A stretch of DNA of 64,000 nucleotides from positions 30,681-94,680 of the forward strand of contig CAMRWN010000003.1 in NCBI GenBank assembly GCA_947054455.1, read 5' to 3'. The notes under the pieces are model-generated. The model did no database searches. It was not told where the DNA came from and was given only the letters and a program-made list of their open reading frames with translations. This stretch comes from an uncultured Alphaproteobacteria bacterium. GTDB taxonomy: Bacteria > Pseudomonadota > Alphaproteobacteria > Rs-D84. This document shows, in pieces, positions 10,371 through 53,564 of the stretch. Position 1 is the stretch's first letter, and every line of letters starts with the position of its first letter. Made by a program: the position numbers and the translations under genes.

Positions 10371-11120
10371 TTATTTTGTATCAAGGTCAGATTGTTTAGG
10401 GATTTTATTTACGGTGATATTGCCGGTAATACCAACAGCGGTGCCGACACTTGTAAGAGTAGCGCCAGTTGTCAGTTTCTTTTTAGATGTGTCCTTTTGT
10501 TCCTGCCATTGTTTGGCATCTTGGCTTGTTTCATCCATCAGGGCGCGTGCAATAGATGCATAATTGCCACCTGTTTTTCCGGTTCCCACGTCGTCGTACA
10601 GACCGGTTGCGGCCTTGTCTATCACTATTTCTGATTCTATGCCCGGGCGCAGTCCCAATGCTTCCTTGCGTATTTTCAGATTGTTGGCCAGCGCGGCGTA
10701 TTCCGTATACAGTGCGACCATGTCGTTGCCGCCTGGTGTTTGTATGTTTTTCTCGCCGTTGTTAAAGGTCTGACCGTCGTTGTATCTGCATTTTATCGTT
10801 TGCAGGTATGCCTGCATATCCTGTTCGGCGTCCGCGTCGGCACGTTGTTCCGCTGCGCTTGATGCCAACATCATACCGCCGATACCGCTGGTTCCGATTG
10901 TTGTTGCGGCCAATATTTTGTTTGATGATGATTGTTCTCGTTTTTTGGCAGCAATGTATTTTTCATACAAATTATCCGTATGTGAGTATAAGTCTACGAC
11001 TTCTATTCCCAGCGTTCGTTTATAAAGCGATGTATACGGGTTGTCTGGCAACGCCGCTTCCAAACCGTATGCCGCATACGGAATTAACAAAAACAACAAA
11101 AAAAGCTTATTTGATATCAT
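10371..11120 (-). CDS. Secreted protein of unknown function (249 aa)
   Basis: Signal peptide MISNKLFLLFLLIPYAAYG. Contains G/T/S-rich hydrophobic stretches. It overlaps the upstream gene by 14 nt. Confidence 0.6.
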   Translation of the reverse strand: MISNKLFLLFLLIPYAAYGLEAALPDNPYTSLYKRTLGIEVVDLYSHTDNLYEKYIAAKKREQSSSNKILAATTIGTSGIGGMMLASSAAEQRADADAEQDMQAYLQTIKCRYNDGQTFNNGEKNIQTPGGNDMVALYTEYAALANNLKIRKEALGLRPGIESEIVIDKAATGLYDDVGTGKTGGNYASIARALMDETSQDAKQWQEQKDTSKKKLTTGATLTSVGTAVGITGNITVNKIPKQSDLDTK

Positions 11121-11961
11121 TGGATTGTGATTTGCTGTTTATGTACTCATAATTATAACCAATTACAAAGCCTGTAGGGAAATTGCCGGGATATTTCTCT
11201 TCTATAATTTTTCTTTTTTTGACATCTCGCTTATAGTTCCGTAACTCTTTTTTTGACATAGTCCCAAACTTTGCGGTATATGCACGCTCTTGTTCACGAT
11301 ACTGGGCCCATTCATCGTATGGAAACTGGATGGAATCAATATCTAAAATAATTTCAGTGGTGGTATTGTTTGTGTCGCTAAAACTGTCATTGGACAAATA
11401 TATAGAAAAAGTTTGAGTTACATTGCGGTCTGCGTCATCTTCCTGTACAAAAATTTCTTGCTGGGTACCATAATCTGTTATATCAATGTAAAACTCTTCA
11501 TGTTTGTCAGGATACGGACATATTTGCCATATGTCCTTTTGACATTCCGGCAAATCCAGGCGACCGTTATCCAATTGATAAAAGTCATGTTCTGTTGTAC
11601 TGTTAGATTTTATCTGGCGGCCGGTTTTTTGACTGCGTTCTTTTAATTTATTTATAAAGTATTCTTTGTACCAGTCAAACGATGCGCGGGCCAGATAATT
11701 ACGATAGGCAATTAATTTTTCATTATTGGATTTGTTCGTATTTTGCTCAACCAATTCTGGATTTATTGCTAACATTTTGTTTTCTATATTTTTTAACTCA
11801 TCTTGTATAATTGTACTTTGCGCACCGGCATAAGATATAAGTTGCTTTGCTTCGCTCAGATCATATTCTTTTTTGTCGGATTGGGAGGCGTGTGAGTATG
11901 ACGCCAGGCAGCCCATAGATAAAATCACAATAAACAACTTCCTCATTTCGCTCACCATCAA
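11107..11961 (-). CDS. Secreted protein of unknown function (AT-rich gene)
   Basis: Signal peptide MRKLFIVILSMGCLASYSHA. The likely true start is the ATG at 11946 (SD ggtgag), whereas the ORF track starts at the TTG at 11961. Confidence 0.6.
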   Translation of the reverse strand: MMVSEMRKLFIVILSMGCLASYSHASQSDKKEYDLSEAKQLISYAGAQSTIIQDELKNIENKMLAINPELVEQNTNKSNNEKLIAYRNYLARASFDWYKEYFINKLKERSQKTGRQIKSNSTTEHDFYQLDNGRLDLPECQKDIWQICPYPDKHEEFYIDITDYGTQQEIFVQEDDADRNVTQTFSIYLSNDSFSDTNNTTTEIILDIDSIQFPYDEWAQYREQERAYTAKFGTMSKKELRNYKRDVKKRKIIEEKYPGNFPTGFVIGYNYEYINSKSQSNDIK

Positions 11962-11971
11962 TCGGACTTAA

Positions 11972-12134
11972 CAAAAAACCACCACAAATTTCAGGTGGTC
12001 AGGAGTTTTTTTCCGTCGCAATATCAAAAGCAGCACTAAATAGCGCATATTCAATTAAATTTCGACGCGTAGCGGAAGGGGCTTGAACACCACCGCGACA
12101 TGTCAATTATAGCATTGAGGTGTCCACTGTGCAA
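11972..12134 (-). promoter_or_regulatory. Promoter, ~125-nt RNA and terminator unit (element B) directly upstream of 11107-11961
   Basis: Minus strand reads TTGCAC (12134-12129), a 17-nt spacer, then TATAAT (12111-12106). The terminator GACCACC-loop-GGUGGU-U6 (12000-11972) ends about 12-27 nt before the start codon. Confidence 0.45.
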
Positions 12135-24266: not shown

Positions 24267-27068
24267 TTATTTACCCCATTGGGTTCCGATGACATATTCC
24301 GCCGCCAGCGGTACGGACAGTTTTGCCGCGTTTTCCATGGCGTGTTTAATTTTTGATGCGAATTCGGCGGCAGCCGCGGCATCGCATTCAAATATTATTT
24401 CGTCATGAACCTGCATAATCATGCGGATTTTGTCCGCATTCGGTTTCATTATGTTTTTATCGATTTCAACCATTGCGCGCCGCATCAGGTCTGCTTCGAA
24501 TCCCTGGATGGGGGCGTTTACCGCCGCGCGCATGGCATATGCCCGCATGCGGGGATTTTTTACCTCTGGCAATTCGATGCGACGTCCCCACGGGGTATAC
24601 ACGCACGCGTTTTCCATGGCGAATTCCTTGATTTGGTCTATGTATGTCTTGATTTCCGGCAGTCCCGCCATATAGGAATTTATAACGTCCGCCGCGGCCG
24701 CGCGCGAAACGCCCAGCTGGCCCGACAGGCCGAATGACGAAATCCCGTAAATAATCGAAAAATTGACGGTTTTTGCCGCGCGGCGCAAATCCCGCGGCAC
24801 CGGCGCGTCGGACGCAATGCCAAATATTTTTCTGGCCGTCTGCTCGTGAATGTCCAGGTTGGAATTAAATGTTTCCTTGAACATTTTAACGTTCGCAACA
24901 TCGGCCAGCAGGCGCAGCTGAATCTGGGAATAGTCCGCAGATATCAGAACGCGCTCGTCGGGGGCGATGAAACATTTTCTTATTTCTTCGCCCAGTGCTG
25001 TTTTAATCGGTATATTTTGCAGGTTTGGATCCCGCGAAGACAGGCGCGCGGTATTCGTGCTGGTTTGCAGGTATGTTGTATGAATACGGCCGTCGGATGC
25101 AATTTGGCGCGGCAATGCGTCCGCGTATGTGCCGGCCAGTTTTGCGATTGAACGCCAATTCAGAATTTTTTCAACAATCGGGTGCGCGTCTATGATGTCG
25201 TTCAGGGCGGCGGCGTCTGTGGAACGTTTTTTATTCTCGGGCAGGTGCATTTCATCAAACAAAATGGCGCCCAGTTGTTTGGGACTGGCGATATTGAATT
25301 CGCGGCCCGCCATATCCCATATTTCGCGTTCCAATGCGGACATCTGGTCGTGGAAGACCGCCGACAGATTCTGCAGTCCCGCCTTGTTCACCAGAACGCC
25401 CGCCCGTTCCATCTGCATCAAAATCGGCATCAGCGGTAAATCGCATGTTTCGTACAATTCGCGCAGGCGGCTGTCCGCATCCAACTGGGGACGCATCAGT
25501 TCATACAGGGCCATGCAGACCGTTGCGTCTTCGGCGGCATACGGCGCGGCCGCCGCCAGCGTCAATTCGTCGAAATGGCGGTCTGCGTCGCGTGTTGCGG
25601 CCCCGAACAGCGATGCAAAAGAAATGTTTTCATGTCCCAGATATTTCAGCGCCAGTTCATCCAGCCCGTGTCCGTGCGTCGTCCCGTGCAACGCATAAGA
25701 CAGCAGCATTGTGTCGTCAATCGGCGTGATTTCGGATGTAGGCCAGCCTTCGTTTTCCAAGATATGCAGGTCGTATTTCAAATTATGTCCGACTTTTACG
25801 ATTTCGGGGTTTGTCAGAAACGGCCACAGTTTTTTGCGCACAACGTCAATCGGCATCTGGTTGGGGGCCGTGTCCTGGCCGCCGAACAGGTCTGCGGATT
25901 TTGTTATGTGTCTGATTGGAATGTATGCGCCGCGGCGCGTGTCCGCCGCCAGCGATATTCCGACAATTTTGTCATTCATCGGCGACAGGCCGGTTGTTTC
26001 GGTGTCGAATGCCAGAACATTCTTCACGCGCGCCAGGAATGCATCCAGCTCTTGGGGGGTGGTTATTATCTCGTATTCAGTTGCGACCTGAACGTGCGGG
26101 GCCGCCGGTTGGGGTTGGGCGGGCGTGTCTATGCCGGTGGGACATACTGAGGCCGGATATTGGAATTGCGGCGTCTGGGCGTCCGGGTCGTATTCGGCAA
26201 TTGGAAACATTTTTTCAATCTTTGCGACCAGCGATGCACTTTCCAGTTTTGTTTTTACAAATTCCAGCGCCGCCGGCGTGTTGAATACAAACGGGCGAAT
26301 CTGCAGCCCGTCCAGATTCACATCATCCTTTAGTCTGACCAGCTGTCGTGATATGAACGCCTGTTCCCGGTTGTCGCGCAGCAGTGTGCGTATACGTTCG
26401 TTTTTTACATCTTCCAGATGTTCGTACAGTGCGTCCAGCCCACCGAACTGGTTTATCAGTTCGGATGCTTTTTTCGGCCCGATGCCAGGCACGCCCGGAA
26501 CATTGTCGGTTGCGTCGCCCATCAGACTTTGCACGTCGACGACGTGTTCGGGGTCGACGCCGAATTTTTCCACCACCTGGGGGGCGCGGATTTCGCGTGC
26601 TTTCATCCCGTCATATAGATAGACACAATCCGACACCAGCTGCATCAGGTCCTTGTCGCTGGTGATAATCCGTGTCGTGTCGGTTTTGTTGCAGTTTTCG
26701 CGCGCCAGTGTCGCGATTACGTCGTCCGCTTCGACACCTGGAATGCACAGCACCGGCATCCCCAGCGCGGCCATCGCTTCGCGTATCATTATGCCCTGGG
26801 ATATCAAATCCGCCGGTGTTTCGCTGCGGTTGGCCTTGTATTGCGGATATATGTCCTGACGGAAAGTGATGCGGGATGCGTCGAATATGCACACGAACGA
26901 ATCATCCGGGCCCGCCGCCCCCAGCACGGGCAGAATCATGTTGAAAAATCCGTACACCGCGCCGGTCGGCGTTCCGTCGCGCCGCGTCAGGCGGCTGTGC
27001 ACGCCGTAATAGGCGCGAAACAGCAAAGAATTTCCGTCAATCAGTGTCAGCATGTCTTCCCCCGTCAA
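24267..27068 (-). CDS. polA: DNA polymerase I
   Basis: 933 aa. The 5'-nuclease N-terminus reads LIDGNSLLFRAYY. There is a 3'-5' exonuclease domain (FDTETTGL). Pol motifs include DYSQIQLRLLA and QVHDEIIFE. Confidence 0.95.
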   Translation of the reverse strand: MTGEDMLTLIDGNSLLFRAYYGVHSRLTRRDGTPTGAVYGFFNMILPVLGAAGPDDSFVCIFDASRITFRQDIYPQYKANRSETPADLISQGIMIREAMAALGMPVLCIPGVEADDVIATLARENCNKTDTTRIITSDKDLMQLVSDCVYLYDGMKAREIRAPQVVEKFGVDPEHVVDVQSLMGDATDNVPGVPGIGPKKASELINQFGGLDALYEHLEDVKNERIRTLLRDNREQAFISRQLVRLKDDVNLDGLQIRPFVFNTPAALEFVKTKLESASLVAKIEKMFPIAEYDPDAQTPQFQYPASVCPTGIDTPAQPQPAAPHVQVATEYEIITTPQELDAFLARVKNVLAFDTETTGLSPMNDKIVGISLAADTRRGAYIPIRHITKSADLFGGQDTAPNQMPIDVVRKKLWPFLTNPEIVKVGHNLKYDLHILENEGWPTSEITPIDDTMLLSYALHGTTHGHGLDELALKYLGHENISFASLFGAATRDADRHFDELTLAAAAPYAAEDATVCMALYELMRPQLDADSRLRELYETCDLPLMPILMQMERAGVLVNKAGLQNLSAVFHDQMSALEREIWDMAGREFNIASPKQLGAILFDEMHLPENKKRSTDAAALNDIIDAHPIVEKILNWRSIAKLAGTYADALPRQIASDGRIHTTYLQTSTNTARLSSRDPNLQNIPIKTALGEEIRKCFIAPDERVLISADYSQIQLRLLADVANVKMFKETFNSNLDIHEQTARKIFGIASDAPVPRDLRRAAKTVNFSIIYGISSFGLSGQLGVSRAAAADVINSYMAGLPEIKTYIDQIKEFAMENACVYTPWGRRIELPEVKNPRMRAYAMRAAVNAPIQGFEADLMRRAMVEIDKNIMKPNADKIRMIMQVHDEIIFECDAAAAAEFASKIKHAMENAAKLSVPLAAEYVIGTQWGK

Positions 27069-27105
27069 ACCGGGGGCGCCGCGCGCCCCCGGATATGTGT
27101 TGTAT

Positions 27106-27645
27106 TTAGAATATATAGCGCAATTTCAAACGCATGTCATAGTGCAGGACGTCCGGTTTTACATCCGGTGTTTTGAATACGTCCGCCGCGTAGAGGGCGC
27201 GCGCCTCGGCGTCGATTTTAATCGGCAGTACGGGCACATTGAACGTCAGCCCCAGCATGCCTTGGTATGCGGCGGTGGTTTCAATATCTATGCCATGGGA
27301 TGCATTGCCGCCCAGTATCATGCCGGCGCCCAGACCCAGGTACGGGTTGACAACCAGCATCGGCATCTTTACATACGCATTTATCATGCCCGCATGCAGG
27401 TTCAGGTCCTTTTCATTCAGATAGTTGTATTCCGCTTCGAAGCGAAACAGCGGAATGTCAATCCCCAGAACCGCGCCGTATGCCTGGGCGTTGTCGGTTG
27501 TGTCGTGGTGGTCCGCGAACAATGTCGCCGCACCCGCGCCGGCCGTTGCACCCGCATAAATGTCGAACAATAAATTAGCATTCGCGCTGCCGGCGGCCAG
27601 TATCAATGTTGCCGCGGTCAGAACGCCCGCTGTTTTTAATTTCAT
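27106..27645 (-). CDS. Small 8-strand-type outer-membrane beta-barrel protein
   Basis: Signal peptide MKLKTAGVLTAATLILAAGSANA, alternating hydrophobic pattern, and C-terminal ...LKLRYIF. Confidence 0.7.
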   Translation of the reverse strand: MKLKTAGVLTAATLILAAGSANANLLFDIYAGATAGAGAATLFADHHDTTDNAQAYGAVLGIDIPLFRFEAEYNYLNEKDLNLHAGMINAYVKMPMLVVNPYLGLGAGMILGGNASHGIDIETTAAYQGMLGLTFNVPVLPIKIDAEARALYAADVFKTPDVKPDVLHYDMRLKLRYIF

Positions 27646-27692
27646 ATTTTGCTCCTTTCTATGATATTATAATAGAAAAAAGAGTGGCATAC

Positions 27693-28214
27693 ATGCAAGA
27701 AAATAAACCTGTTTTAATTGTCGGGCTGGGCAATCCGGGGGGGCAATACGCGCGTACGCGTCATAACGCGGGATTTATGGCGGTTGAATTTATGGCCGGG
27801 CCGGACGCATCTTGGAAAAAGGAACATGACGCGATGACGTCGACGGGAAACATTGACGGCCGGCGTGTTATGTTTGCCATGCCGCAGACATACATGAACC
27901 TGTCTGGGAACGCGGTTGGTGCGCTGATGCGCTTTTACAAGATTCCGCTGGAAAATCTGATTGTGATTCACGACGACATGGATCTGCCGATTGGCACCGT
28001 CCGGACCAAGGTCGGCGGCGGCAGTGCAGGGCACAACGGTATAAAGTCAATTGACACTGCCGTCGGCAACGAATACCGCCGCATAAGAATGGGCATCGGC
28101 CATCCCCGGGAACTGGGGCTGCCGATAAGTCCGGCGGACTGGGTTTTGGGAAAATTTACAGACGAACAGGCTGAATTGCTGCGCGGTGCGATTGAAACAT
28201 TAAAATTGTTTTGA
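27693..28214 (+). CDS. pth: Peptidyl-tRNA hydrolase
   Basis: MQENKPVLIVGLGNPGGQYARTRHNAGF... matches Pth. The track ORF (27606) carries a spurious N-terminal extension. Confidence 0.92.
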   Translation: MQENKPVLIVGLGNPGGQYARTRHNAGFMAVEFMAGPDASWKKEHDAMTSTGNIDGRRVMFAMPQTYMNLSGNAVGALMRFYKIPLENLIVIHDDMDLPIGTVRTKVGGGSAGHNGIKSIDTAVGNEYRRIRMGIGHPRELGLPISPADWVLGKFTDEQAELLRGAIETLKLF

Positions 28215-28216
28215 TT

Positions 28217-29476
28217 TTACCGCACTGCCGTTGCTGTAGGCGGGTTGTAGTGTAGATTTTTATTTGACGGCAGCGTGAAACAATTAGTTCCGTTATCGGT
28301 GCAGAATTTTGTGCCACCCGTGCCGGGCACCATGATGCAGTCTTTGATTGACTCCTTTCCTGCGCCGTCCGTTGTCGCGCCCAGCGGACATGGGTGCGGG
28401 CCGTTATCATCACAGTAATACCCTTTGGGGCAATCACCAATGATTGCTATTAGTTTAAGCTTTGGTGGCGAAGCCAGGTCTTTGTCTTTATCCGGGAAAT
28501 TTGACATGATTTTTGTGTCTATGTCGTCGGTTAGTGATAGTTTTTTTTGTGAATCATCGTCTATATGGTCGCACCCTTCAAAACAATACCAAAAGTCAAA
28601 ATATTTTCCTTTATCAGCTGGCAAATCTGTTTTGTTTGGCTCCCGCACCGGGCAAGATTGATCGATTGTGCAAGTTTGCAGCATATATGTGCTGTTGTCA
28701 TCTTCCTTATAATAATATTCTACCGTGTATGAGGCGGGTTCCCATTGCGCATACAGGGTTGTTTCCGGGGTGGTAAATGTGCAGGCATTTATGCCTGCTT
28801 CGCGACGTCCTAGCACGTTAAAATACTTTGTGCCGCCGGTGGCTTCGGTAAAATATCCGGTAAATTTTTTTGACCAATTTGGATTTTCTGGGATTGAATC
28901 CGCTCCAGGATCTTGCTTCCAGCCATCTGAACCCGATGGATCATTAGTGTATGAAAAACCATTCATGCAATATGCCCACCATTCTTTCTGGGTATTGTCG
29001 CCGCGATTTCTTTTTAATATGATTTTGACAGGTACAGGTGTGCAATAAGTGTATTCTGATGTCTCCGGAGTTAGAGGGTCGTCTGGGAAGTCGCCATTCC
29101 AATAATTTTCGCCGTCAAATCTTATGGTTGTCGCAGGCGCCCATTCATTTCCGGCACATGGAACGCAGCCTAATTTCCCATCAACCTTATGTTTTTCGTT
29201 GCATGATATTGTCCATGGACAATTATCTGCAGCGGTTCCAGGGCCGGTCGCCGTGGCGCCGTTTGGTATATTGGTACAGGACTCGCATTTATTGTCTTTG
29301 GCATATTGGCCATTGGCGCAAGGAATACATCCCAGAGTCGTATATATACAATGATTATCCCGGCAGGATTGTTCCGAATCGTTGAATTGTGCGCAATTAT
29401 CAACCCACGCTGTCGCGCAATTTATGGAAAAAGTTAAAAATGCAATGAATATAATTTTTTTCATTCTCAAAATCAT
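28217..29476 (-). CDS. Cys-rich secreted protein with furin/GCC2-GCC3-like Cys modules and Listeria-Bacteroides-type repeats
   Basis: Signal peptide M(ILRM)KKIIFIAFLTFSINCATA; the start is at 29476 or 29464. Cys modules are CIPCANGQYAKDNKCESC...GATATGPGTAADNC and CPKGYYCDDNGPHPCPLGATTDGAGKESIKDC. The central FTGYFTEATGGTKYF....TTLYAQW / YTVEY fits the List_Bact repeat pattern. The track N-terminus runs through a terminator. Confidence 0.65.
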   Translation of the reverse strand: MILRMKKIIFIAFLTFSINCATAWVDNCAQFNDSEQSCRDNHCIYTTLGCIPCANGQYAKDNKCESCTNIPNGATATGPGTAADNCPWTISCNEKHKVDGKLGCVPCAGNEWAPATTIRFDGENYWNGDFPDDPLTPETSEYTYCTPVPVKIILKRNRGDNTQKEWWAYCMNGFSYTNDPSGSDGWKQDPGADSIPENPNWSKKFTGYFTEATGGTKYFNVLGRREAGINACTFTTPETTLYAQWEPASYTVEYYYKEDDNSTYMLQTCTIDQSCPVREPNKTDLPADKGKYFDFWYCFEGCDHIDDDSQKKLSLTDDIDTKIMSNFPDKDKDLASPPKLKLIAIIGDCPKGYYCDDNGPHPCPLGATTDGAGKESIKDCIMVPGTGGTKFCTDNGTNCFTLPSNKNLHYNPPTATAVR

Positions 29477-29502
29477 GCTAGAAAAACGGGTGGGCAAAAG
29501 CA

Positions 29503-29529
29503 ATAAAAAAAATCCGGTTGAAACCGGAT
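29503..29529 (-). terminator. Intrinsic terminator after the lipoprotein gene
   Basis: tccggtt/aaccgga hairpin flanked by A and T runs. Confidence 0.65.
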
Positions 29530-29532
29530 TTT

Positions 29533-29976
29533 TTATTTTTGTTTTTGATATTTTTTGTTGATTGTCCAACCTTGCTGTGTAAGCCACAGGCTGTCGGACG
29601 GGACCTTTGCCGCTTCGCCCAGTTTAAAATTAAAATCGCCACGCCCACGAAGTTTAGGAGACATTTTAATACGTGGCCGCATAAAATTATCACAAAAAAA
29701 AGCAATATTTTCTGAGAGGGCTCTATCCCAATCTCCTTCCGCAACCATATATATAGATTCGACGGATGGGTCATTGATATATTGTTGTAATATTTCAATC
29801 GACAGTCTTTCATCACCGGTAGTAACTGTAAACGGCAGTTCAACATCGTGTTTCGGGCCGGTGTAAGGCTTTTCGTTTTCTATTTTTTTACATGCCGGCA
29901 ACAATGTCGCCCCCGCCAGGGCCAGCATCGGCACCGCCTTTTTTATGTTATACGGAAAAATCTTTTTGAATTGCAT
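29533..29976 (-). CDS. Lipoprotein of unknown function (147 aa)
   Basis: The ATG at 29976 is preceded by aaggag. Signal peptide with lipobox: MQFKKIFPYNIKKAVPMLALAGATLLPAC. The longer track ORF (to 30123) has no SD. Confidence 0.65.
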   Translation of the reverse strand: MQFKKIFPYNIKKAVPMLALAGATLLPACKKIENEKPYTGPKHDVELPFTVTTGDERLSIEILQQYINDPSVESIYMVAEGDWDRALSENIAFFCDNFMRPRIKMSPKLRGRGDFNFKLGEAAKVPSDSLWLTQQGWTINKKYQKQK

Positions 29977-30261
29977 TTCGCACTCCTTGGTTTTTACCTT
30001 TTTTCGGAAAGAGAAAACTTTCCTGTGATACAAACAAAAAAGCCCGGCAAAAAACCGGACTTTTCCATTAATATCGGTTGACAGCATATTCCCACGCAAC
30101 GCCACGGGCGTTTGATACGGCATAAAAGACGCAAATAATTGGTATCATTGCAACCTTTGCTGTAATATGGTCATATGCTCTTGTTCAATATTAATTTTAA
30201 TATGAAAAAAGTCTGTTTGTCAAGAAATAAAGCAAAAACAGCCTGTTATATGAATTTTATC

Positions 30262-33200
30262 TTATTTGGCGACCGGGCTATAGTCAACCATCCATTTTGT
30301 TTTGTATAGTGCATTTGTTCCATTTTTATCCAAATATGGGCATTTTTCGAAGCGAACAAATCTCCATGCGTCGCTTTTCTCAGCTTTTTCTGCCGTTATT
30401 TTGCATGTATTCTGTTCGCCGTTTGCGGATTTAGGCTTGTATTGGAACGATAACAGCGGATTGCTGGTCTGGGGATTTGTCGATGTTGGCGGTGTCAAAT
30501 AACGATATGAGCCATTTCCTATGCTAAACAGTATGTATTGGCCGTCGCACTGTACGGTTTTCCCAGATGGATAATTTGCATCTTCTGTCGTTGCATTTTC
30601 CGTTCCGTGTGGTGCCGTATCGCTTAGGCAATACAGGTAATTATAAGCAGGGATACTATCCTCGTATTCGGTTTTGGGAGTTATATATACATATGACACA
30701 ACAAAGTGCATGTTGTGGCTGTTGGCATTGGCCGGCACGCAAAATTTTATTTTTTTATCCGATGTTTGTAGGGTACCAAAGTAATCGGTTATGCTTGTGC
30801 TCAAATTAGTCTCTATTACTCCATTCGTACAGCAATTGCCCATGCTGTCCAGTTCGCCGGCCGTGCCGTCCGCCTTGATGCAGCAGTTTTCCAAATAATA
30901 ATCATTAAATACCGACGGCGGGTTTGAATTTATTTTTTCATAATCGGCGCTGCATGCCTGGCCGTCGCCCTTGGATACCATTGAATCCGGTACGCAAACC
31001 AATGCGCCGTTGCTGTCAATGCTGGATACAAAGCCGATTCCGCAGCTGGTGTCGCGGCAGCTGTCATCGCGGTTCTGGGTGCCTGTATTGACCGCAAACC
31101 ATGACAACAATGTCGATGTGGAAGAATCAACCGGCGTGCGGATGCGGTTGTGGCTGCCCGCGCTGTTAAGCTGTTTGTCGGATGATACCTCGCAGTTGCC
31201 CCACAGGCTTTCCGACAGGCGGCACACCTTGCACTGGTGTGAATTCGGCTGCTGGCATTCGGTGGTGCAAATGTCATGGACGCAGTTCATTGCGATTACT
31301 TTTCCGTTTTCGTCGCGCAGCGGACGCAGTTCGCACGACTGTGTGGTGTCGGATTCAGCATACGTGGTCTGGGGGGCGTTTGTTATTTCCGGCGGCGGCG
31401 TTTTGCCGTACAACTGGCCATAGAAGGAGTTTGTGCCGGCATCCAGCAGGCCGCGTTTGTCCAGTTGCGCCATTATGTTGCTGATTGCCTCTTCGCCCGC
31501 GCTGTCGACACAGTTTTTAACCTCGTTCCAGCAGGCCGAGCGGTTGATTATCGATTTGCGGTTGACCGATGTCTGGATGTTTTCACACAGACCGAAATTG
31601 CCGGAAATAGATTTGCATGCCTGGATGATGCAGGCGCGTCCAACCTCGCGGCAGGTCTGCATGATGGTTTCATACGTGGTGTCTGTCGCGATTTCGGTCA
31701 TGCCGCCAATCCATTCGTCCGCGCCGCCGCCCGTCGATTCCAGCAGCGCCGTGCATGCCATGCGCACATCGGCGCACATCGCGTTTACCGTCTTGTTTGC
31801 GTCGACGCCGAACGTTGACAGCGCGCGCGCGTCAAAGTCGGCCAATGATTTTGCCGTCTCGGACAGGCACTGGGTGGTCAGTGTGGTGCAGCTTTGGCGC
31901 ATTGTTTCCAGTTTGTCGTCCTGGGCCAGTTTTATCTGCGCCAGCGCGTCTTCAATAAATTCATCCCATACGTAATCGGAAATATCCTGGCAGTTTTCCA
32001 TCGCCGGGGCCAAAAACTTTTTCTTGGAATTCAGAAAAGATACGAACGTGTCGTTGCCGGGCGCGGTTGTCCATGTCTGGCCGGCGTCGGGGCGTTTTAT
32101 CAGATTGGCCAGATTCGCCAGTTCCACCGTCAGGAACGCTTCGCCGGTCGACGGGTCTATGTATCGGCCCGACGTGTCCAGACACTTGGTCAAATCAGTG
32201 CCGCAAACCGAAGAATCCGTCAGCATGTCCAGCATCTTCTTTTTGCAGGTCAATATGTCGTCCGAATTGCGCTTTTGATATATGTCCAGACGCGACATGT
32301 CCAGCAATGCGCCGCCTTCGCGCAGTTTTTCGCGCGCCTGGTCGGTCTGGGTCTGGTACGATTTGGCGACGGTGTTGCAGTCCTGTTCGATTGTCATCTG
32401 GTATCCGCTTTCCGCGATAGCCAGTTCATCTTCGCTGCAAACCTCTTGCGCCATTTGGCGGCATACCGGCAGGGCGGCTGAATACAGGGCGGTTCCGCTT
32501 TTGCCGGTGGTTGATGCCCCCAGCATCGAATCGACGCTGTCGAATGCGGCGTCTGCGTTCAGCGACCACGACAGCGATGACAGGTTGGTGTCAAAATTAC
32601 TGCTGTCAAAGCTGGTGTTTAGCTTCTTGGCGATTTCATCCAGCATCTTTTTTGATGCGGACGTGTCTTTTTGATTGAACGCCTGTTCACCCTCGGTCGC
32701 TTTGAACAATGCATCTGCGTCTTCCTTGTCCATGTTGACGGTCAGCAGACGTTGGTTGAAATCCAGCATTTTTTCTTCAACATCGGACAGTTGCCGCTTG
32801 TATTTGTCAAATTCGTTTGCACGGGACGAACATGCGCAACGCCGCAGCTGTGCATCCTTGTTCGCGCAAAATTCATCCATGCAGTCGTAATACACCTCGC
32901 GGCATTTGGAATAGTTTTTGGATATTACGTCTTCACGGGTCAGGGCGGCGCTGCGTGCGATTTGCGTGGCGCCCGCGCGTGATGTGGTGGCGGCCCGCGA
33001 CGGGGTTCTGGATGTTGTGGCGGTGCGCGATGTAGCCGTGCGCGTGGCCGCGCGCGATGCGGTTGCGTGGGATGTTGTGGCGGTGCGCGACACTGTTGCA
33101 CTGGGGCGCGATGCGGCGGTTCGTGCGGTGGTGGAATTGGTTTGCGTCGCGCGTGATTGAACGCCGGCAGCGGTTCGTGCGGCCACGCCCGTGGATGCGG

Positions 33201-33480
33201 CGCGATTTTCAGTTCTTATCACGACCGCGTTGCCGCGCGGGCTGGTATCGGTGGCGCGTTCGCGCACGGACGGCGCGGCGCCGGTCTGGTTTGTCGCGCG
33301 CGAAACCGTTGTCGGGGCGGTGGTGTCTGCGTTGCCGGTTTTCTGGCGTGAAGATACGACAACGCCGGCCGCAGTACGGCGCGCGGCGGCGCGCGCGGCG
33401 TCCGCTGCATCTTCTGCATGCGCGCCCCAAAACGCAAGCGGGGCAAGGCATGCAGCCAAAATCAGCTTGATTCCTTTCAT
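30262..33480 (-). CDS. Giant Cys-rich secreted protein, paralog 4 (1072 aa)
   Basis: Signal peptide MKGIKLILAACLAPLAFWGAHA. About 170 aa of T/S/A/R-rich repeats follow. Head motif KCREVYYDCMDEFCANKDAQLRRCACSS. A long Cys-paired region follows, and the AT-rich 3' third encodes a distinct Cys-rich C-terminal region. Confidence 0.85.
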   Translation of the reverse strand: MKGIKLILAACLAPLAFWGAHAEDAADAARAAARRTAAGVVVSSRQKTGNADTTAPTTVSRATNQTGAAPSVRERATDTSPRGNAVVIRTENRAASTGVAARTAAGVQSRATQTNSTTARTAASRPSATVSRTATTSHATASRAATRTATSRTATTSRTPSRAATTSRAGATQIARSAALTREDVISKNYSKCREVYYDCMDEFCANKDAQLRRCACSSRANEFDKYKRQLSDVEEKMLDFNQRLLTVNMDKEDADALFKATEGEQAFNQKDTSASKKMLDEIAKKLNTSFDSSNFDTNLSSLSWSLNADAAFDSVDSMLGASTTGKSGTALYSAALPVCRQMAQEVCSEDELAIAESGYQMTIEQDCNTVAKSYQTQTDQAREKLREGGALLDMSRLDIYQKRNSDDILTCKKKMLDMLTDSSVCGTDLTKCLDTSGRYIDPSTGEAFLTVELANLANLIKRPDAGQTWTTAPGNDTFVSFLNSKKKFLAPAMENCQDISDYVWDEFIEDALAQIKLAQDDKLETMRQSCTTLTTQCLSETAKSLADFDARALSTFGVDANKTVNAMCADVRMACTALLESTGGGADEWIGGMTEIATDTTYETIMQTCREVGRACIIQACKSISGNFGLCENIQTSVNRKSIINRSACWNEVKNCVDSAGEEAISNIMAQLDKRGLLDAGTNSFYGQLYGKTPPPEITNAPQTTYAESDTTQSCELRPLRDENGKVIAMNCVHDICTTECQQPNSHQCKVCRLSESLWGNCEVSSDKQLNSAGSHNRIRTPVDSSTSTLLSWFAVNTGTQNRDDSCRDTSCGIGFVSSIDSNGALVCVPDSMVSKGDGQACSADYEKINSNPPSVFNDYYLENCCIKADGTAGELDSMGNCCTNGVIETNLSTSITDYFGTLQTSDKKIKFCVPANANSHNMHFVVSYVYITPKTEYEDSIPAYNYLYCLSDTAPHGTENATTEDANYPSGKTVQCDGQYILFSIGNGSYRYLTPPTSTNPQTSNPLLSFQYKPKSANGEQNTCKITAEKAEKSDAWRFVRFEKCPYLDKNGTNALYKTKWMVDYSPVAK
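33010..33090. repeat. 60-bp-period repeat inside paralog 4 (encodes an RTATTSR-type spacer)
   Basis: ggatgttgtggcggtgcgcga occurs at 33010-33030 and again at 33070-33090. Confidence 0.75.
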
Positions 33481-33548
33481 TCTTTATATGTATATGTTAG
33501 CAAATTTATAAAAAGACGGGCAAGGGGAAAATCAATATTATTGAATGA

Positions 33549-33633
33549 TGGTGCGGCCAAGGGGACTTGAACCCCTAAGGATTTCTCCACAGCATCCTTA
33601 GTGCTGCGCGTCTACCAGTTTCGCCATGGCCGC
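33549..33633 (-). tRNA. tRNA-Leu, class II, apparent anticodon AAG
   Basis: Reverse complement reads GCGGCCA-UG-GCGAAACUGGUAGACGC-G-CAGCA-CUAAGGA-UGCUG-variable arm-GGGGUUCAAGUCCCC-UUGGCCGC-ACCA. The 7-nt loop C-U-AAG-G-A places AAG at positions 34-36. Confidence 0.8.
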
Positions 33634-33721
33634 GTAAAATAAATTTTACAAAGAAGCTGTTTTATTTTCAACCTTTTTATGATATATTGATAAAGATAAT
33701 TATAACACAAGGAATTTTAAT

Positions 33722-35227
33722 ATGAGAAAAGTACCACAGTTCCTTTTTAGATGCTCGCTGGCGGCGTTGATGCCGGTGGCGGCGAATGCAGCCGGAACAT
33801 ACTATACCGGTAATTACCAGTCGCCGCAGTCGCGATATACTCAAAAAAATTATACGAACTATAATCAGAATTCAACCTATGCGCGAAATGTTGGCTATAC
33901 TATGCCGGGTGCCGCACGTTCCGGCAACACTGTGGTCGGTCAGTCCAGAACCCAGGTGGCCCAGCCGCGCGCGCCGCAACAGACCGCCGCGTCGTCTTCT
34001 TCGAAAAAGGGCTTCTTTGTAGATGCCGGTTTGTCCCATGAAGTTGCACAGTGGCAGTTCGAAATGAAGGAATCCGGGTCTATTCTGCATTATGACAATA
34101 TTGGTTGGAACGTGTTTGATGTAAAGGGCGGGTACGCTTTTAATGTCGGCAATACGAACCTGCAATTGGATGCGGGATTTAAATATGGAATGCAGTCCGG
34201 TGATTCCACAATGGTTGACGACGATATTACAAACGGCGGATATTTTATAACACAGTGGGTAAAGGACGATGCCGACAAAACCATAATCGGCGAACAAATC
34301 GGACATTCCTTGTCTGTGGGCAGCAGCAGCGACGGCAACATGCTGGGGTTCAATATAGGCCTGGGGCTGACTGATTTCTTTAAATGGGGAAATGTGAAGT
34401 TCACGCCGTCAATCGGGTATCGTTATTTGAAATACAAATTGGAAACAAAAAACAATTATGGGCTGTCCGTTGATACGGCCGCGTGTTTCCGCATAGATGG
34501 CAGCGATGAAATCCAGTGCGATCCGGCAATCATCGTGAATTATGGCAGCGGCGACCAAACATGGCAGCAGATTTTGTGGCGCGACAAACTGACGGACAAG
34601 CTGCAGGTGGTCGATGCCGCGGATATAAAATTCATTGATACCGGCGGCACGTATTACTATCAGCAGCCGGGAACCAGCCATTCGTACGAGGTTGAATGGA
34701 CCGGGCCGTATATCGCCATGGACATGGTATATGACATAAACAAAAACAACGCCGTCAACGGGCGTGTTGAACTGGGCTTCCCGGGGTATTCGGCCACCGG
34801 CGACCAGCCGTATCGCTTTGACTGGCAGCATCCCAAGAGCGTCGAGGACAAGGCAGATATGTTTTCAGCCATGCACGTCGGGCTGGGTGCGAATTGGACA
34901 ACGGCAATAACTGACATGGTGTCATTTTCGCTGGGGCTGACATATGACTATTATAACGTCAGCGGCGCGGATGCAAAAACATATCTGAACGGGGGATACT
35001 ATATCGACATTTATAACGATTTGCTGTCCCAGTGGGCGCAAAAATATCCGACCAATACGGAACAGCACATGCTGGGCCAGATTGAAGGCGTGGCCGGCGA
35101 CCCTCTGGCCATAAATATCAAGGATTTGGAGGCATCATGTCCGGGATGGGTATGTTCCAGCAACGGTGAAATAGAATCGTTTTACAAATCAATTGGCGTG
35201 CGCGTCGGTATAAATGCGAAATTCTAA
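33722..35227 (+). CDS. Large outer-membrane beta-barrel protein (501 aa), family unknown
   Basis: Signal peptide ...AALMPVAANA, then a Q/N/Y-rich linker and an amphipathic strand pattern. The C-terminus reads ...GVRVGINAKF. Confidence 0.7.
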   Translation: MRKVPQFLFRCSLAALMPVAANAAGTYYTGNYQSPQSRYTQKNYTNYNQNSTYARNVGYTMPGAARSGNTVVGQSRTQVAQPRAPQQTAASSSSKKGFFVDAGLSHEVAQWQFEMKESGSILHYDNIGWNVFDVKGGYAFNVGNTNLQLDAGFKYGMQSGDSTMVDDDITNGGYFITQWVKDDADKTIIGEQIGHSLSVGSSSDGNMLGFNIGLGLTDFFKWGNVKFTPSIGYRYLKYKLETKNNYGLSVDTAACFRIDGSDEIQCDPAIIVNYGSGDQTWQQILWRDKLTDKLQVVDAADIKFIDTGGTYYYQQPGTSHSYEVEWTGPYIAMDMVYDINKNNAVNGRVELGFPGYSATGDQPYRFDWQHPKSVEDKADMFSAMHVGLGANWTTAITDMVSFSLGLTYDYYNVSGADAKTYLNGGYYIDIYNDLLSQWAQKYPTNTEQHMLGQIEGVAGDPLAINIKDLEASCPGWVCSSNGEIESFYKSIGVRVGINAKF

Positions 35228-52538: not shown

Positions 52539-53261
52539 TTATAAGATTTTTGAGCCACGCAGTTGTTTTAAAATTTCTCTCTGGGTTCTCAGCTGACATT
52601 CTGACATATATTGGGTATATGCGCGTTTATCTCCATTCGCACGGTTAATTATCGCCTGGATATATGCTTGTTTGTCGCTGCGCTTGTTGAATGTAATGGG
52701 TCGAAATCCGTTTTGAAGCAACATCCAGTTCATGATTAGTCTGGCGGTGCGTTTGTTGAAATCGTCAAACGGCTGCAGCATTATTATATTGTAATGTGCA
52801 TCGTATGCGCGTGTAAATATATCGTGTTTTGAATGGTTTATGTTATATACAATTTGTGCCAATTCGTATTCAATAAAACGGCTGTCCGGTGCGTTGTACT
52901 GCAGACCGTTTACACTCATGTTCAACCTGCAGTTCGCTGTACGGAAATTTGAGCCTTCGATATGCGTGTTTTGACACAGCAGGTGATGAATATGACGTAT
53001 GCTGTCGACAGAAATTTCCTGGTTTGTATTTTCTATGATATAATCGTATGCAATACTGATGTTGGACATACTGGTGTAATCAAAGTATTTTTTTGGTACC
53101 GGACACAAAACTTGTGGTTCTTCGTACGCGATTTGACGCCGCAGCCAATTCAGGTTATTTGTGCGCTTTACAGAAGAAAAACTGTTAAAACATTTATCCA
53201 GTTCATCCCGATTGGATATGATGCGCTCCTTTGTCGTAGGAATTGCTTTTTTTGGGGTCAT
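52539..53261 (-). CDS. Fic-fold protein with a degenerate active-site motif (240 aa)
   Basis: The likely start is MTPKKAIPTT at 53261; the track ORF to 53540 crosses hairpins and T runs. The core reads ...AHYNIIMLQPFDDFNKRTARLIMNWML. The Fic consensus is HPFx[DE]GNGRxxR. Confidence 0.6.
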   Translation of the reverse strand: MTPKKAIPTTKERIISNRDELDKCFNSFSSVKRTNNLNWLRRQIAYEEPQVLCPVPKKYFDYTSMSNISIAYDYIIENTNQEISVDSIRHIHHLLCQNTHIEGSNFRTANCRLNMSVNGLQYNAPDSRFIEYELAQIVYNINHSKHDIFTRAYDAHYNIIMLQPFDDFNKRTARLIMNWMLLQNGFRPITFNKRSDKQAYIQAIINRANGDKRAYTQYMSECQLRTQREILKQLRGSKIL

Positions 53262-53283
53262 GTTTTTCTCTTTTGTGTTTGCG

Positions 53284-53385
53284 TTCTGCCTGATCCAAAC
53301 CACCGTTTGCGGTGGTGTTTTTTTTATTTTTTTGTTTTCCCGGTTTTCCGGGATTTTTATCCGCCTGATTCTGCCTAATCCAAAC
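53284..53385. repeat. 17-nt direct repeat pair plus two hairpins in the Fic/ctpA intergenic region
   Basis: ttctgcctgatccaaac (53284-53300) and ttctgcctaatccaaac (53369-53385). Between them lie accacc-gtttgc-ggtggt followed by a T8 run, and tcccgg-tttt-ccggga followed by a T5 run. Confidence 0.6.
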
Positions 53386-53564
53386 GGTGGTTTGGATTTA
53401 GTGGTAAAAAGGTGGTTCCTTATAAGTATTTTATAGTACATAAAATAAAGTTTGTCAATAGCTTGTCCCAAAAATTTAATAAATGTATGAAAATCGCGCT
53501 TGCGGTGGTCGTCCTTTTGTTTTATGGTATTTTCATACATTATATATGCATAAAAGGAAAGGGC

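Follow-up and report, generated by a model that had tools for sequence, protein, structure and literature searches.

A large exported protein of a gut alphaproteobacterium with a hypervariable C-terminal module exchanged between strains

Introduction

Mosaic surface antigens that diversify by recombination are well known, e.g., from the hypervariable regions of Neisseria PorB, Opa and PilE and from the outer-membrane adhesins of Helicobacter. Here, we analyse a gene with a related layout on a stretch of 64,000 nucleotides (nt; the window) from an uncultured alphaproteobacterium (assembly GCA_947054455.1, contig CAMRWN010000003.1, positions 30,681 to 94,680 of the forward strand). It encodes an exported protein of 1072 amino acids (aa) that consists of a spacer, a helical body, a first variable module (V1), a cysteine-rich linker and a C-terminal variable module (V2, the tail), and it is followed by an islet with two genes for exported proteins, p147 and p419. 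Like the mosaic antigens, the protein combines a conserved framework with sharp hypervariable patches and indels, its alleles recombine, the diversity of the flanking DNA is raised, and body and tip have separate histories. On the other hand, there is no kinship in sequence or fold, and surface exposure is presumed here. Variability resides in a C-terminal domain framed by Cys, which is borne by a large exported protein of helical build, and no silent cassettes were found. The hypervariable recombining tip follows a principle familiar from mosaic surface antigens and adhesins; neither its fold nor the family nor the organism has been characterised.

Other systems share parts of this layout. 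CdiA-CT/CdiI, Rhs and MafB also show a long conserved N-terminus, a bounded C-terminus of about 220 aa with a lower content of guanine and cytosine (GC), and small variable downstream genes. Our locus differs in that all tips are homologous, with no toxin domain or boundary motif found, and in that the downstream genes are often absent, code for exported proteins and are, by prediction, transcribed separately; three features that define these systems failed to appear. Phage receptor-binding proteins, too, join a conserved shaft or body to a distal binding domain that is polymorphic and is exchanged by recombination at fixed junctions, but our tail has no structural match in BFVD and no PHROG match, and no fibre or trimer features were seen. 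Chlamydial OmcB and OmcA are comparable in being large exported proteins with many conserved cysteines; the gene studied here adjoins one for a Pom-type porin (Protochlamydia outer-membrane protein, PF17251). However, no sequence or fold similarity to them was detected, and OmcB is not known to have a hypervariable C-terminal module.

Candidatus Enterousia and the order Rs-D84 are widespread, uncultured gut bacteria with genomes of about 0.9 Mb that lack standard nutrient transporters; Enterousia is a reduced-genome gut lineage without tricarboxylic acid cycle or respiration (PMC12306168). The records in which we found orthologues are labelled Candidatus Enterousia or uncultured Alphaproteobacteria and stem from chicken, ruminant, horse, human and termite guts. 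The source genome comprises 4 contigs and is 86% complete, without contamination. Related genomes measure 0.6–1.1 Mb, even when they are 97–100% complete.

Polymorphism between strains

We compared the locus with that of a sister strain, whose allele (P0001) is available on three independent assemblies (L001–L003) and is one of the two alleles known for the source species. This allele and its islet are identical in the three assemblies, although these come from three different samples. Between the two strains, the bodies are 99–100% identical and the tails 66–80%. Over 20 kb, nucleotide identity is mostly 95–100% (median about 98%), with the exception of positions 28200–30950, where it alternates between 96–100% and 61–86% in sharp patches, several of them with indels. 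The flanks of this variable block are 98–100% identical.

Six of the patches fall into the tail (Table 1), four of them with indels, and the structural model of the tail places them on predicted β-hairpins and loops. The clustering of the tail differences is extreme (P about 1e-38). Within these patches, the proportion of synonymous differences (pS) is 0.56 and that of nonsynonymous ones (pN) 0.41, compared to 0.065 and 0.018 between patches, i.e., the between-patch pS equals the level of the body. Since synonymous divergence is saturated inside the patches, their sequences argue for replacement by old divergent alleles, i.e., short-tract recombination among balanced polymorphisms, and not for recent point mutation. 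As to the rates of nonsynonymous (dN) and synonymous (dS) substitution, dN/dS pairs are 0.002/0.075 for the body, 0.16/0.26 for the tail, 0.158/0.77 for p147 and 0.159/0.27 for p419. In addition, dS is raised in the flanking genes pth (0.18), omp179 (0.19) and Pom (0.13), as is expected near a locus under balancing selection; polA, PBP1C and p204 show values of 0.02–0.03.

Exchange of the C-terminal part is also found in other species. Among 120 orthologues, identity to the source protein is 54–87% per 40-residue block (mostly 67–87%) for residues 201–680, 24–40% for residues 681–760 (V1), 42–53% for residues 761–840 (linker) and 9–29% for residues 841–1072 (V2). Many strain pairs combine bodies that are 98–100% identical with tails of 28–40% identity (e.g., P0004/P0009, P0072/P0089, P0074/P0089), which is near the between-species background of 0.27–0.29. 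The breakpoints recur at aa 671–688 and aa 856–870, and V1 and V2 assort independently among the seven alleles of one species: P0072 has its V1 in common with P0089 (0.97) and its V2 with P0074 and P0092 (0.93), but P0089 and P0072 agree in V2 with an identity of 0.28 only. Patchy divergence of tail and islet was found for two more strain pairs (L047/L044 and L060/L108), one of them from a species rich in adenine and thymine (AT-rich).

In summary of these comparisons, the body of the 1072-aa protein is under strong purifying selection, and its C-terminal loops are replaced between strains, together with the neighbouring genes for exported proteins, at fixed junctions. The original prediction, made from the letters of this DNA, had proposed a conserved N-terminal scaffold with a swapped C-terminal part and had named an alignment of orthologues as the check, which it passes. 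Of the likeness to swappable tips of adhesins and toxins drawn there, the exchange between strains stands; the toxin analogy does not, given that no toxin domain was found and that the tails are one homologous domain.

Nucleotide composition

The gene was further predicted to be a compositional mosaic with an AT-rich C-terminal third. Its reading frame (30262–33480, minus strand) is intact. In a sliding profile, GC is 0.53–0.61 across positions 30900–32600 and goes down to 0.36–0.46 from 30950 to about 28300. GC at third codon positions (GC3) is about 0.56–0.80 (mostly 0.70) until residue ~850 and 0.32–0.58 past it. The mosaic composition is thereby confirmed, with a GC3 of 0.68–0.69 for aa 189–855 vs. 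0.45 for aa 856–1072. The AT-rich part, on the other hand, is smaller than a third and amounts to ~20% of the protein, i.e., its 217 C-terminal aa.

To place this step among those of other genes, we use a changepoint scan of the 728-kb genome, which covered all 141 open reading frames (ORFs) with a length of 450 aa or more. The maximum-contrast GC3 changepoint of the 1072-aa gene lies at codon 881 (about position 30837) with z = 6.8, i.e., composition is not uniform and the step is beyond chance. This within-gene shift ranks first of the 141 ORFs, with a |z| of 4.7 for the runner-up. The step (codon ~856–881) coincides with the allelic breakpoint at aa 856 between the two strains of the species. 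Further downstream, the two genes for exported proteins that had been described as AT-rich are indeed so (Table 1). Tail, p147 and p419 form one AT-rich block (28217–30915) with a common composition (GC 0.42–0.45) as far as pth, where it ends. In composition and boundary, this block is like an imported island, as it deviates from the host genome and its boundary is a recombination junction. The locus is a clean case of an intragenic composition step that indicates such a junction rather than a foreign type of domain.

Protein family and structure of the tail

Within an orphan family of disulfide-rich envelope proteins that small-genome gut Alphaproteobacteria export via Sec, the 1072-aa protein is the largest. 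It carries the signal peptide of the family, followed by the head motif C-x3-Y-x2-CMDxFC-x9-CxCS, of which C193, C200, MDEFC at 201–205 and C215-A-C217-S are invariant among 92 orthologues. About 10 paralogous matches were obtained in the genome (E 3.5e-69 to 2e-4), all of them inside residues 18–615. All 18 genomes searched from the genus contain an orthologue, as do 46 of the 60 searched from the family, and 872 homologues of the protein are found in the database.

The C-terminal region had been said to have no counterpart in the paralogues. This is correct: none of them matches past aa 615, and a search of the source genome with the tail alone returns the tail itself and no second copy. However, the tail is not the compositionally foreign, different kind of Cys-rich module that had been suggested. 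Alignments of 92–109 orthologues reveal an invariant framework (C843, C866, C867, C883, C951, C978, G980) along with nearly invariant positions (C884, C914, N865, P971, G973, P997). The invariant residues are almost all Cys or Gly, plus one Thr, and Pro, Asn and Tyr occur among the nearly invariant ones. Judged by eye, the tails have the motifs NCC..G..D.(F/M)GNCC, (L/F)C(L/V/I)P and P.G.T..C.G.Y(V/I) in common. Since all orthologues share the Cys/Gly framework, V2 reads as one ancestral homologous domain of the orthologue group.

Outside this group, no counterpart was found. A word-indexed search with residues 835–1072 found the sister strain as the one match, and phmmer with the tail against 1.84 billion representatives yielded, apart from two spurious NHL-repeat proteins, a single fragment of an orthologue, i.e., in both searches the tail occurs on no other scaffold. 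Nothing in Pfam, NCBIfam or PHROG exceeds the cut-offs for the whole protein, the tail, p147 or p419, and tail and p419 show no similarity to each other.

With 92 orthologues as input, AlphaFold2 predicts a disordered spacer, an all-helical body, a mixed middle part and a β-rich C-terminal domain. Residues 801–1072 modelled alone are β-rich as well, with a predicted local distance difference test (pLDDT) of 79.7 and a predicted template modelling score (pTM) of 0.76. Foldseek found no match in the PDB for the full model or the tail model (best E 1.2 and 1.4) and none in BFVD for the tail model (best E 0.09; template modelling score at most 0.2 among the best-ranked matches). Likewise, the orthologue alignment used as a profile had no match among the PDB sequences. 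Neither the helical body nor the tail thus matches a solved fold, which makes the protein a target for structural work.

Interpretation

We favour, with moderate confidence, the reading that V2 is a polymorphic tip, serving in recognition or as an antigen, on which diversifying selection acts, and that alleles of V2 and the islet recombine between strains. Body and spacer would anchor the protein, whose gene lies beside that for the Pom-type porin, in the envelope, such that V2 is presented outward. There it may bind, or be bound by, an external partner such as a phage, another cell with which the bacterium associates, or a ligand or antibody of the host. Many alleles would then be kept by negative frequency-dependent selection and shuffled by homologous recombination, with some exchanges comprising the whole module and others short tracts. 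Diversifying, frequency-dependent selection is the likely driver, acting on an exposed surface that serves for recognition or as an antigen. Surface exposure, the selective agent and the lower-GC origin discussed next are the parts of this reading that we infer.

With regard to the composition, recombination probably brought tail and islet into this unusually GC-rich lineage from an Enterousia gene pool of lower GC, and they have not yet reached the resident composition. Fast evolution alone does not give AT-richness, because V1 is equally divergent between species at a GC3 of 0.69. An origin in a lower-GC pool is favoured since V1 keeps the resident GC3 and the step lies at the recombination junction, and since composition is uniform through the tail, the islet and their conserved segments and some GC-rich lineages keep GC-rich tails (GC3 of body/tail 0.63/0.57 in L058, 0.66/0.59 in L076 and 0.77/0.72 in L106). 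Lower-GC species supply the best matches to the tail, but at only 29–36% identity and without a significant trend.

We also related tail to body composition by a regression across 68 orthologues, with a body GC3 of at least 0.45 counted as GC-rich. The result is a tail GC3 of 0.11 + 0.66 times the body GC3 (r 0.81), and the source gene with its deficit of 0.22 is second of the 68 and well past the trend. Body GC3 ranges from 0.21 to 0.77 among the species of the family. Within the genus it spans 0.27–0.62, next to 0.69 for the source gene, which is a very wide spread for genomes of ~0.9 Mb.

Several observations weigh against the favoured reading. The tail GC3 deficit has a mean of 0.07 in GC-rich orthologues (P 1e-4) and of 0.01 in AT-rich ones, and the hypervariable patches are the AT-richest parts of the tail (0.36–0.40 vs. 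0.47 between patches); both would also be predicted from a local mutational or selective cause. No donor was found, with the tail being at most ~36% identical to anything outside the species, and the tail is not significantly closer to the tails of AT-rich species (Spearman -0.12, P 0.32). Furthermore, the alleles known for the source species number two, no route across the outer membrane is known, and the hypervariable positions in strain pairs of other species do not significantly fall on the source patches (Spearman 0.04, a weak test on a gappy tail alignment).

The GC-rich orthologues' deficit and the AT-rich patches would fit AT drift in place, i.e., a resident tail and islet whose sequence turns over quickly under weak constraint and hitch-hiking, so that the universal mutation bias from GC to AT can take effect, with the conserved core kept at higher GC. 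The slope of 0.66 between tail and body GC3 points in the same direction, as do several GC-rich orthologues of other genera with a GC3 changepoint at the end of the conserved body. Yet V1 and linker are, between species, as divergent as the tail, or nearly so, at a GC3 of 0.68–0.69, the GC-rich L058, L076 and L106 have GC-rich tails, the deficit of the source gene exceeds that of all orthologues but one, and the block is of uniform composition, including segments that are 98–100% conserved between strains. We thus regard drift as a rather doubtful explanation.

Concerning the function of the tip, it is conceivable, if unlikely, that V2, p147 and p419 together make up the apparatus by which an obligately dependent bacterium with a tiny genome recognises its partner or host, with V2 as an adhesin tip of new fold whose alleles would choose a host cell, a microbe or a mucosal ligand and would be kept by frequency-dependent selection. 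It is less likely that V2 represents a novel kind of polymorphic effector, extracellular and rich in disulfides, that has p147 as partner. Irrespective of its function, the locus is a clear conserved hot spot of strain diversity, and the protein that contains it was present in all genomes searched from the genus. For this reason, it is a candidate recognition or antigenic determinant and a ready strain-typing marker for metagenomes, and it provides a handle on how reduced-genome gut bacteria meet their host or partner.

Downstream islet and further alternatives

The islet is polymorphic in its presence: among the 54 loci for which pth was located, it is absent from 22 and present in 32. The gap between gene and pth is 0–73 bp in the former and 1.2–4.7 kb in 31 of the latter; L087 has an islet of 402 bp, and its contig ends about 730 bp past the stop codon. 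We found p147 in 24 loci, with 1–3 copies, and p419 in 17; p419 was detected in 15/40 genomes of the genus (27–49% identity). Islet GC is below that of the adjacent core in 28 of 33 loci. In the source genome, p147 has its own promoter-like site (30223–30194, TTGACA-18-TAAAAT, 11 of 12 positions matched in a promoter scan), a leader, a signal peptide and a terminator. The leader of ~215 nt is predicted to be structured (fold z-score -4.26) and holds a terminator-like hairpin at about 30030–30066. Positions 30000–30199 are 100% identical between the strains, whereas the coding DNA on either side is hypervariable.

A polymorphic toxin with immunity protein of the CdiA or Rhs kind, i.e., V2 as a swappable toxin and p147 as its immunity protein, would account for the long conserved N-terminus, the sharply bounded variable C-terminus of ~220 aa, the small variable gene in 1–3 copies and the lower GC. 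But in 22/54 loci (41%) pth follows the stop codon with no gene in between and hence no adjacent immunity gene, which does not fit an obligatory one, and the own promoter-like site, the 215-nt leader and the signal peptide of p147 do not fit either. Moreover, all tails belong to a single homologous domain whose Cys framework is invariant, conserved polar residues that would suggest catalysis are lacking, and no toxin or other match was found in Pfam, NCBIfam or PHROG. A pattern search of the protein revealed no VENN, Rhs, PAAR or PxxxxDPxGL-type boundary motif; the junction is the linker with DSCRDTSCG...C. Finally, a toxin that is delivered into the cytoplasm would not usually have an extracellular-type domain with nine Cys. 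Altogether, we consider a toxin function very unlikely.

Even less can be said for programmed variation, in which the patches would be written by a diversity-generating retroelement or copied by gene conversion out of silent cassettes, as known for TprK, VlsE, Msp2 or PilE; we deem it highly improbable. The discrete, sharp-edged patches with invariant sequence between them would fit it. However, no reverse transcriptase (RVT_1) was found in the 86%-complete genome, and the block has no second copy or template repeat in the genome, of which 14% is missing. Elsewhere in the genome, variant k-mers from the other strain's patches do not exceed chance either (11 vs. 7.7 expected 14-mers, 1 vs. 0.5 expected 16-mers), indels occur in 4/6 patches, and the other allele is identical in the assemblies from three samples. 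An assembly or binning chimera that joins DNA of two organisms inside the gene, as a composition step within a metagenome-assembled genome might suggest, can practically be dismissed, given that junction, gene order and AT-rich block recur in L001–L003 with 98–100% identity on both sides, that the reading frame is intact and that all orthologues have a tail homologous to this one.

Locus features

Table 1. Features of the 1072-aa gene and its surroundings, in window coordinates
Feature	Residues (aa)	Position	Strand	GC3	Remarks
Signal peptide	1-22	33415-33480	-		MKGIKLILAACLAPLAFWGAHA then ED; kept in orthologue consensus
Arg/Thr/Ala/Ser-rich spacer	23-188	32917-33414	-		GC 0.69, 0 Cys, predicted disordered
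Helical body	189-680	31441-32916	-	0.683	22 Cys; AlphaFold2 helices H189-675
Head motif	192-219	32824-32907	-		KCREVYYDCMDEFCANKDAQLRRCACSS; inside body
Variable module V1	681-745	31246-31440	-	0.692	polymorphic in other species
Cys-rich linker	746-855	30916-31245	-	0.682	invariant columns CxxCRL.E..WGNCE ... TLLSWFA.NTGT ... DSCRDTSCG
Variable module V2 (tail)	856-1072	30265-30915	-	0.452	AT-rich, β-rich, framed by 9 Cys
Tail patch 1		30901-30915	-		hypervariable in strain alignment
Tail patch 2	887-897	30790-30822	-		hypervariable in strain alignment
Tail patch 3		30745-30774	-		hypervariable in strain alignment
Tail patch 4		30712-30726	-		hypervariable in strain alignment
Tail patch 5		30640-30693	-		hypervariable in strain alignment
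Tail patch 6		30295-30384	-		hypervariable in strain alignment
Intergenic region		29977-30261	-		promoter-like site and structured leader ahead of p147
p147		29533-29976	-	0.405	147 aa, exported, possibly lipoprotein
Two-way hairpin terminator		29507-29534	.		between p147 and p419
p419		28217-29476	-	0.426	419 aa, exported Cys-repeat protein
pth (peptidyl-tRNA hydrolase)		27690-28214	+	0.60	Pfam label on L001 gene; conserved right flank
tRNA-Leu(AAG)		33549-33633	-		ARAGORN; Rfam 53.8 bits; upstream neighbour on the gene's strand

Within the spacer, short direct repeats are found, and pLDDT is below 50 for residues 15–187. V1 is identical in both strains of the source species and is not AT-rich there. 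Gene order in the sister strain is that of the source genome, i.e., A2M, PBP1C, two small genes, Pom, tRNA-Leu, the 1072-aa gene, p147, p419, pth, OMP and polA.

For p419, we obtained two weak matches, one to Ephrin_rec_like in Pfam (E 0.011, below the cut-off) and one to a PHROG of unknown function (E 0.012). By eye, its stretch FTGYFTEATGGTKYF...TLYAQW resembles a Listeria-Bacteroides repeat, which Pfam does not call.

The tRNA-Leu gene, the one Rfam hit above gathering score in 27000–34500, was correctly noted as a neighbour of the 1072-aa gene, but it lies at the GC-rich 5' end, away from the AT-rich end. As a conserved neighbour at the equivalent place in 8 of 9 related loci checked, and at that gene end, it was rejected as a landmark of insertion or integration. 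Its anticodon is AAG (A34) in the source genome and most relatives and GAG in the GC-rich L058, L076 and L106. An A34 anticodon is unusual in bacteria.

The Pom-type gene (33722–35227) is a second diversity hot spot, with the dS of 0.13 between the two strains. When L001 is compared with L002, the 1072-aa gene and its islet (about 5.8 kb) are identical, and 28 substitutions are found in 1.1 kb of the Pom-type gene. The window contains more low-GC patches (0.37–0.43), e.g., at 11001–12000, which overlaps an ORF at 11107–11961, and at 52539–53540, which overlaps an ORF with a degenerate Fic-like motif; these may be further flexible islets.

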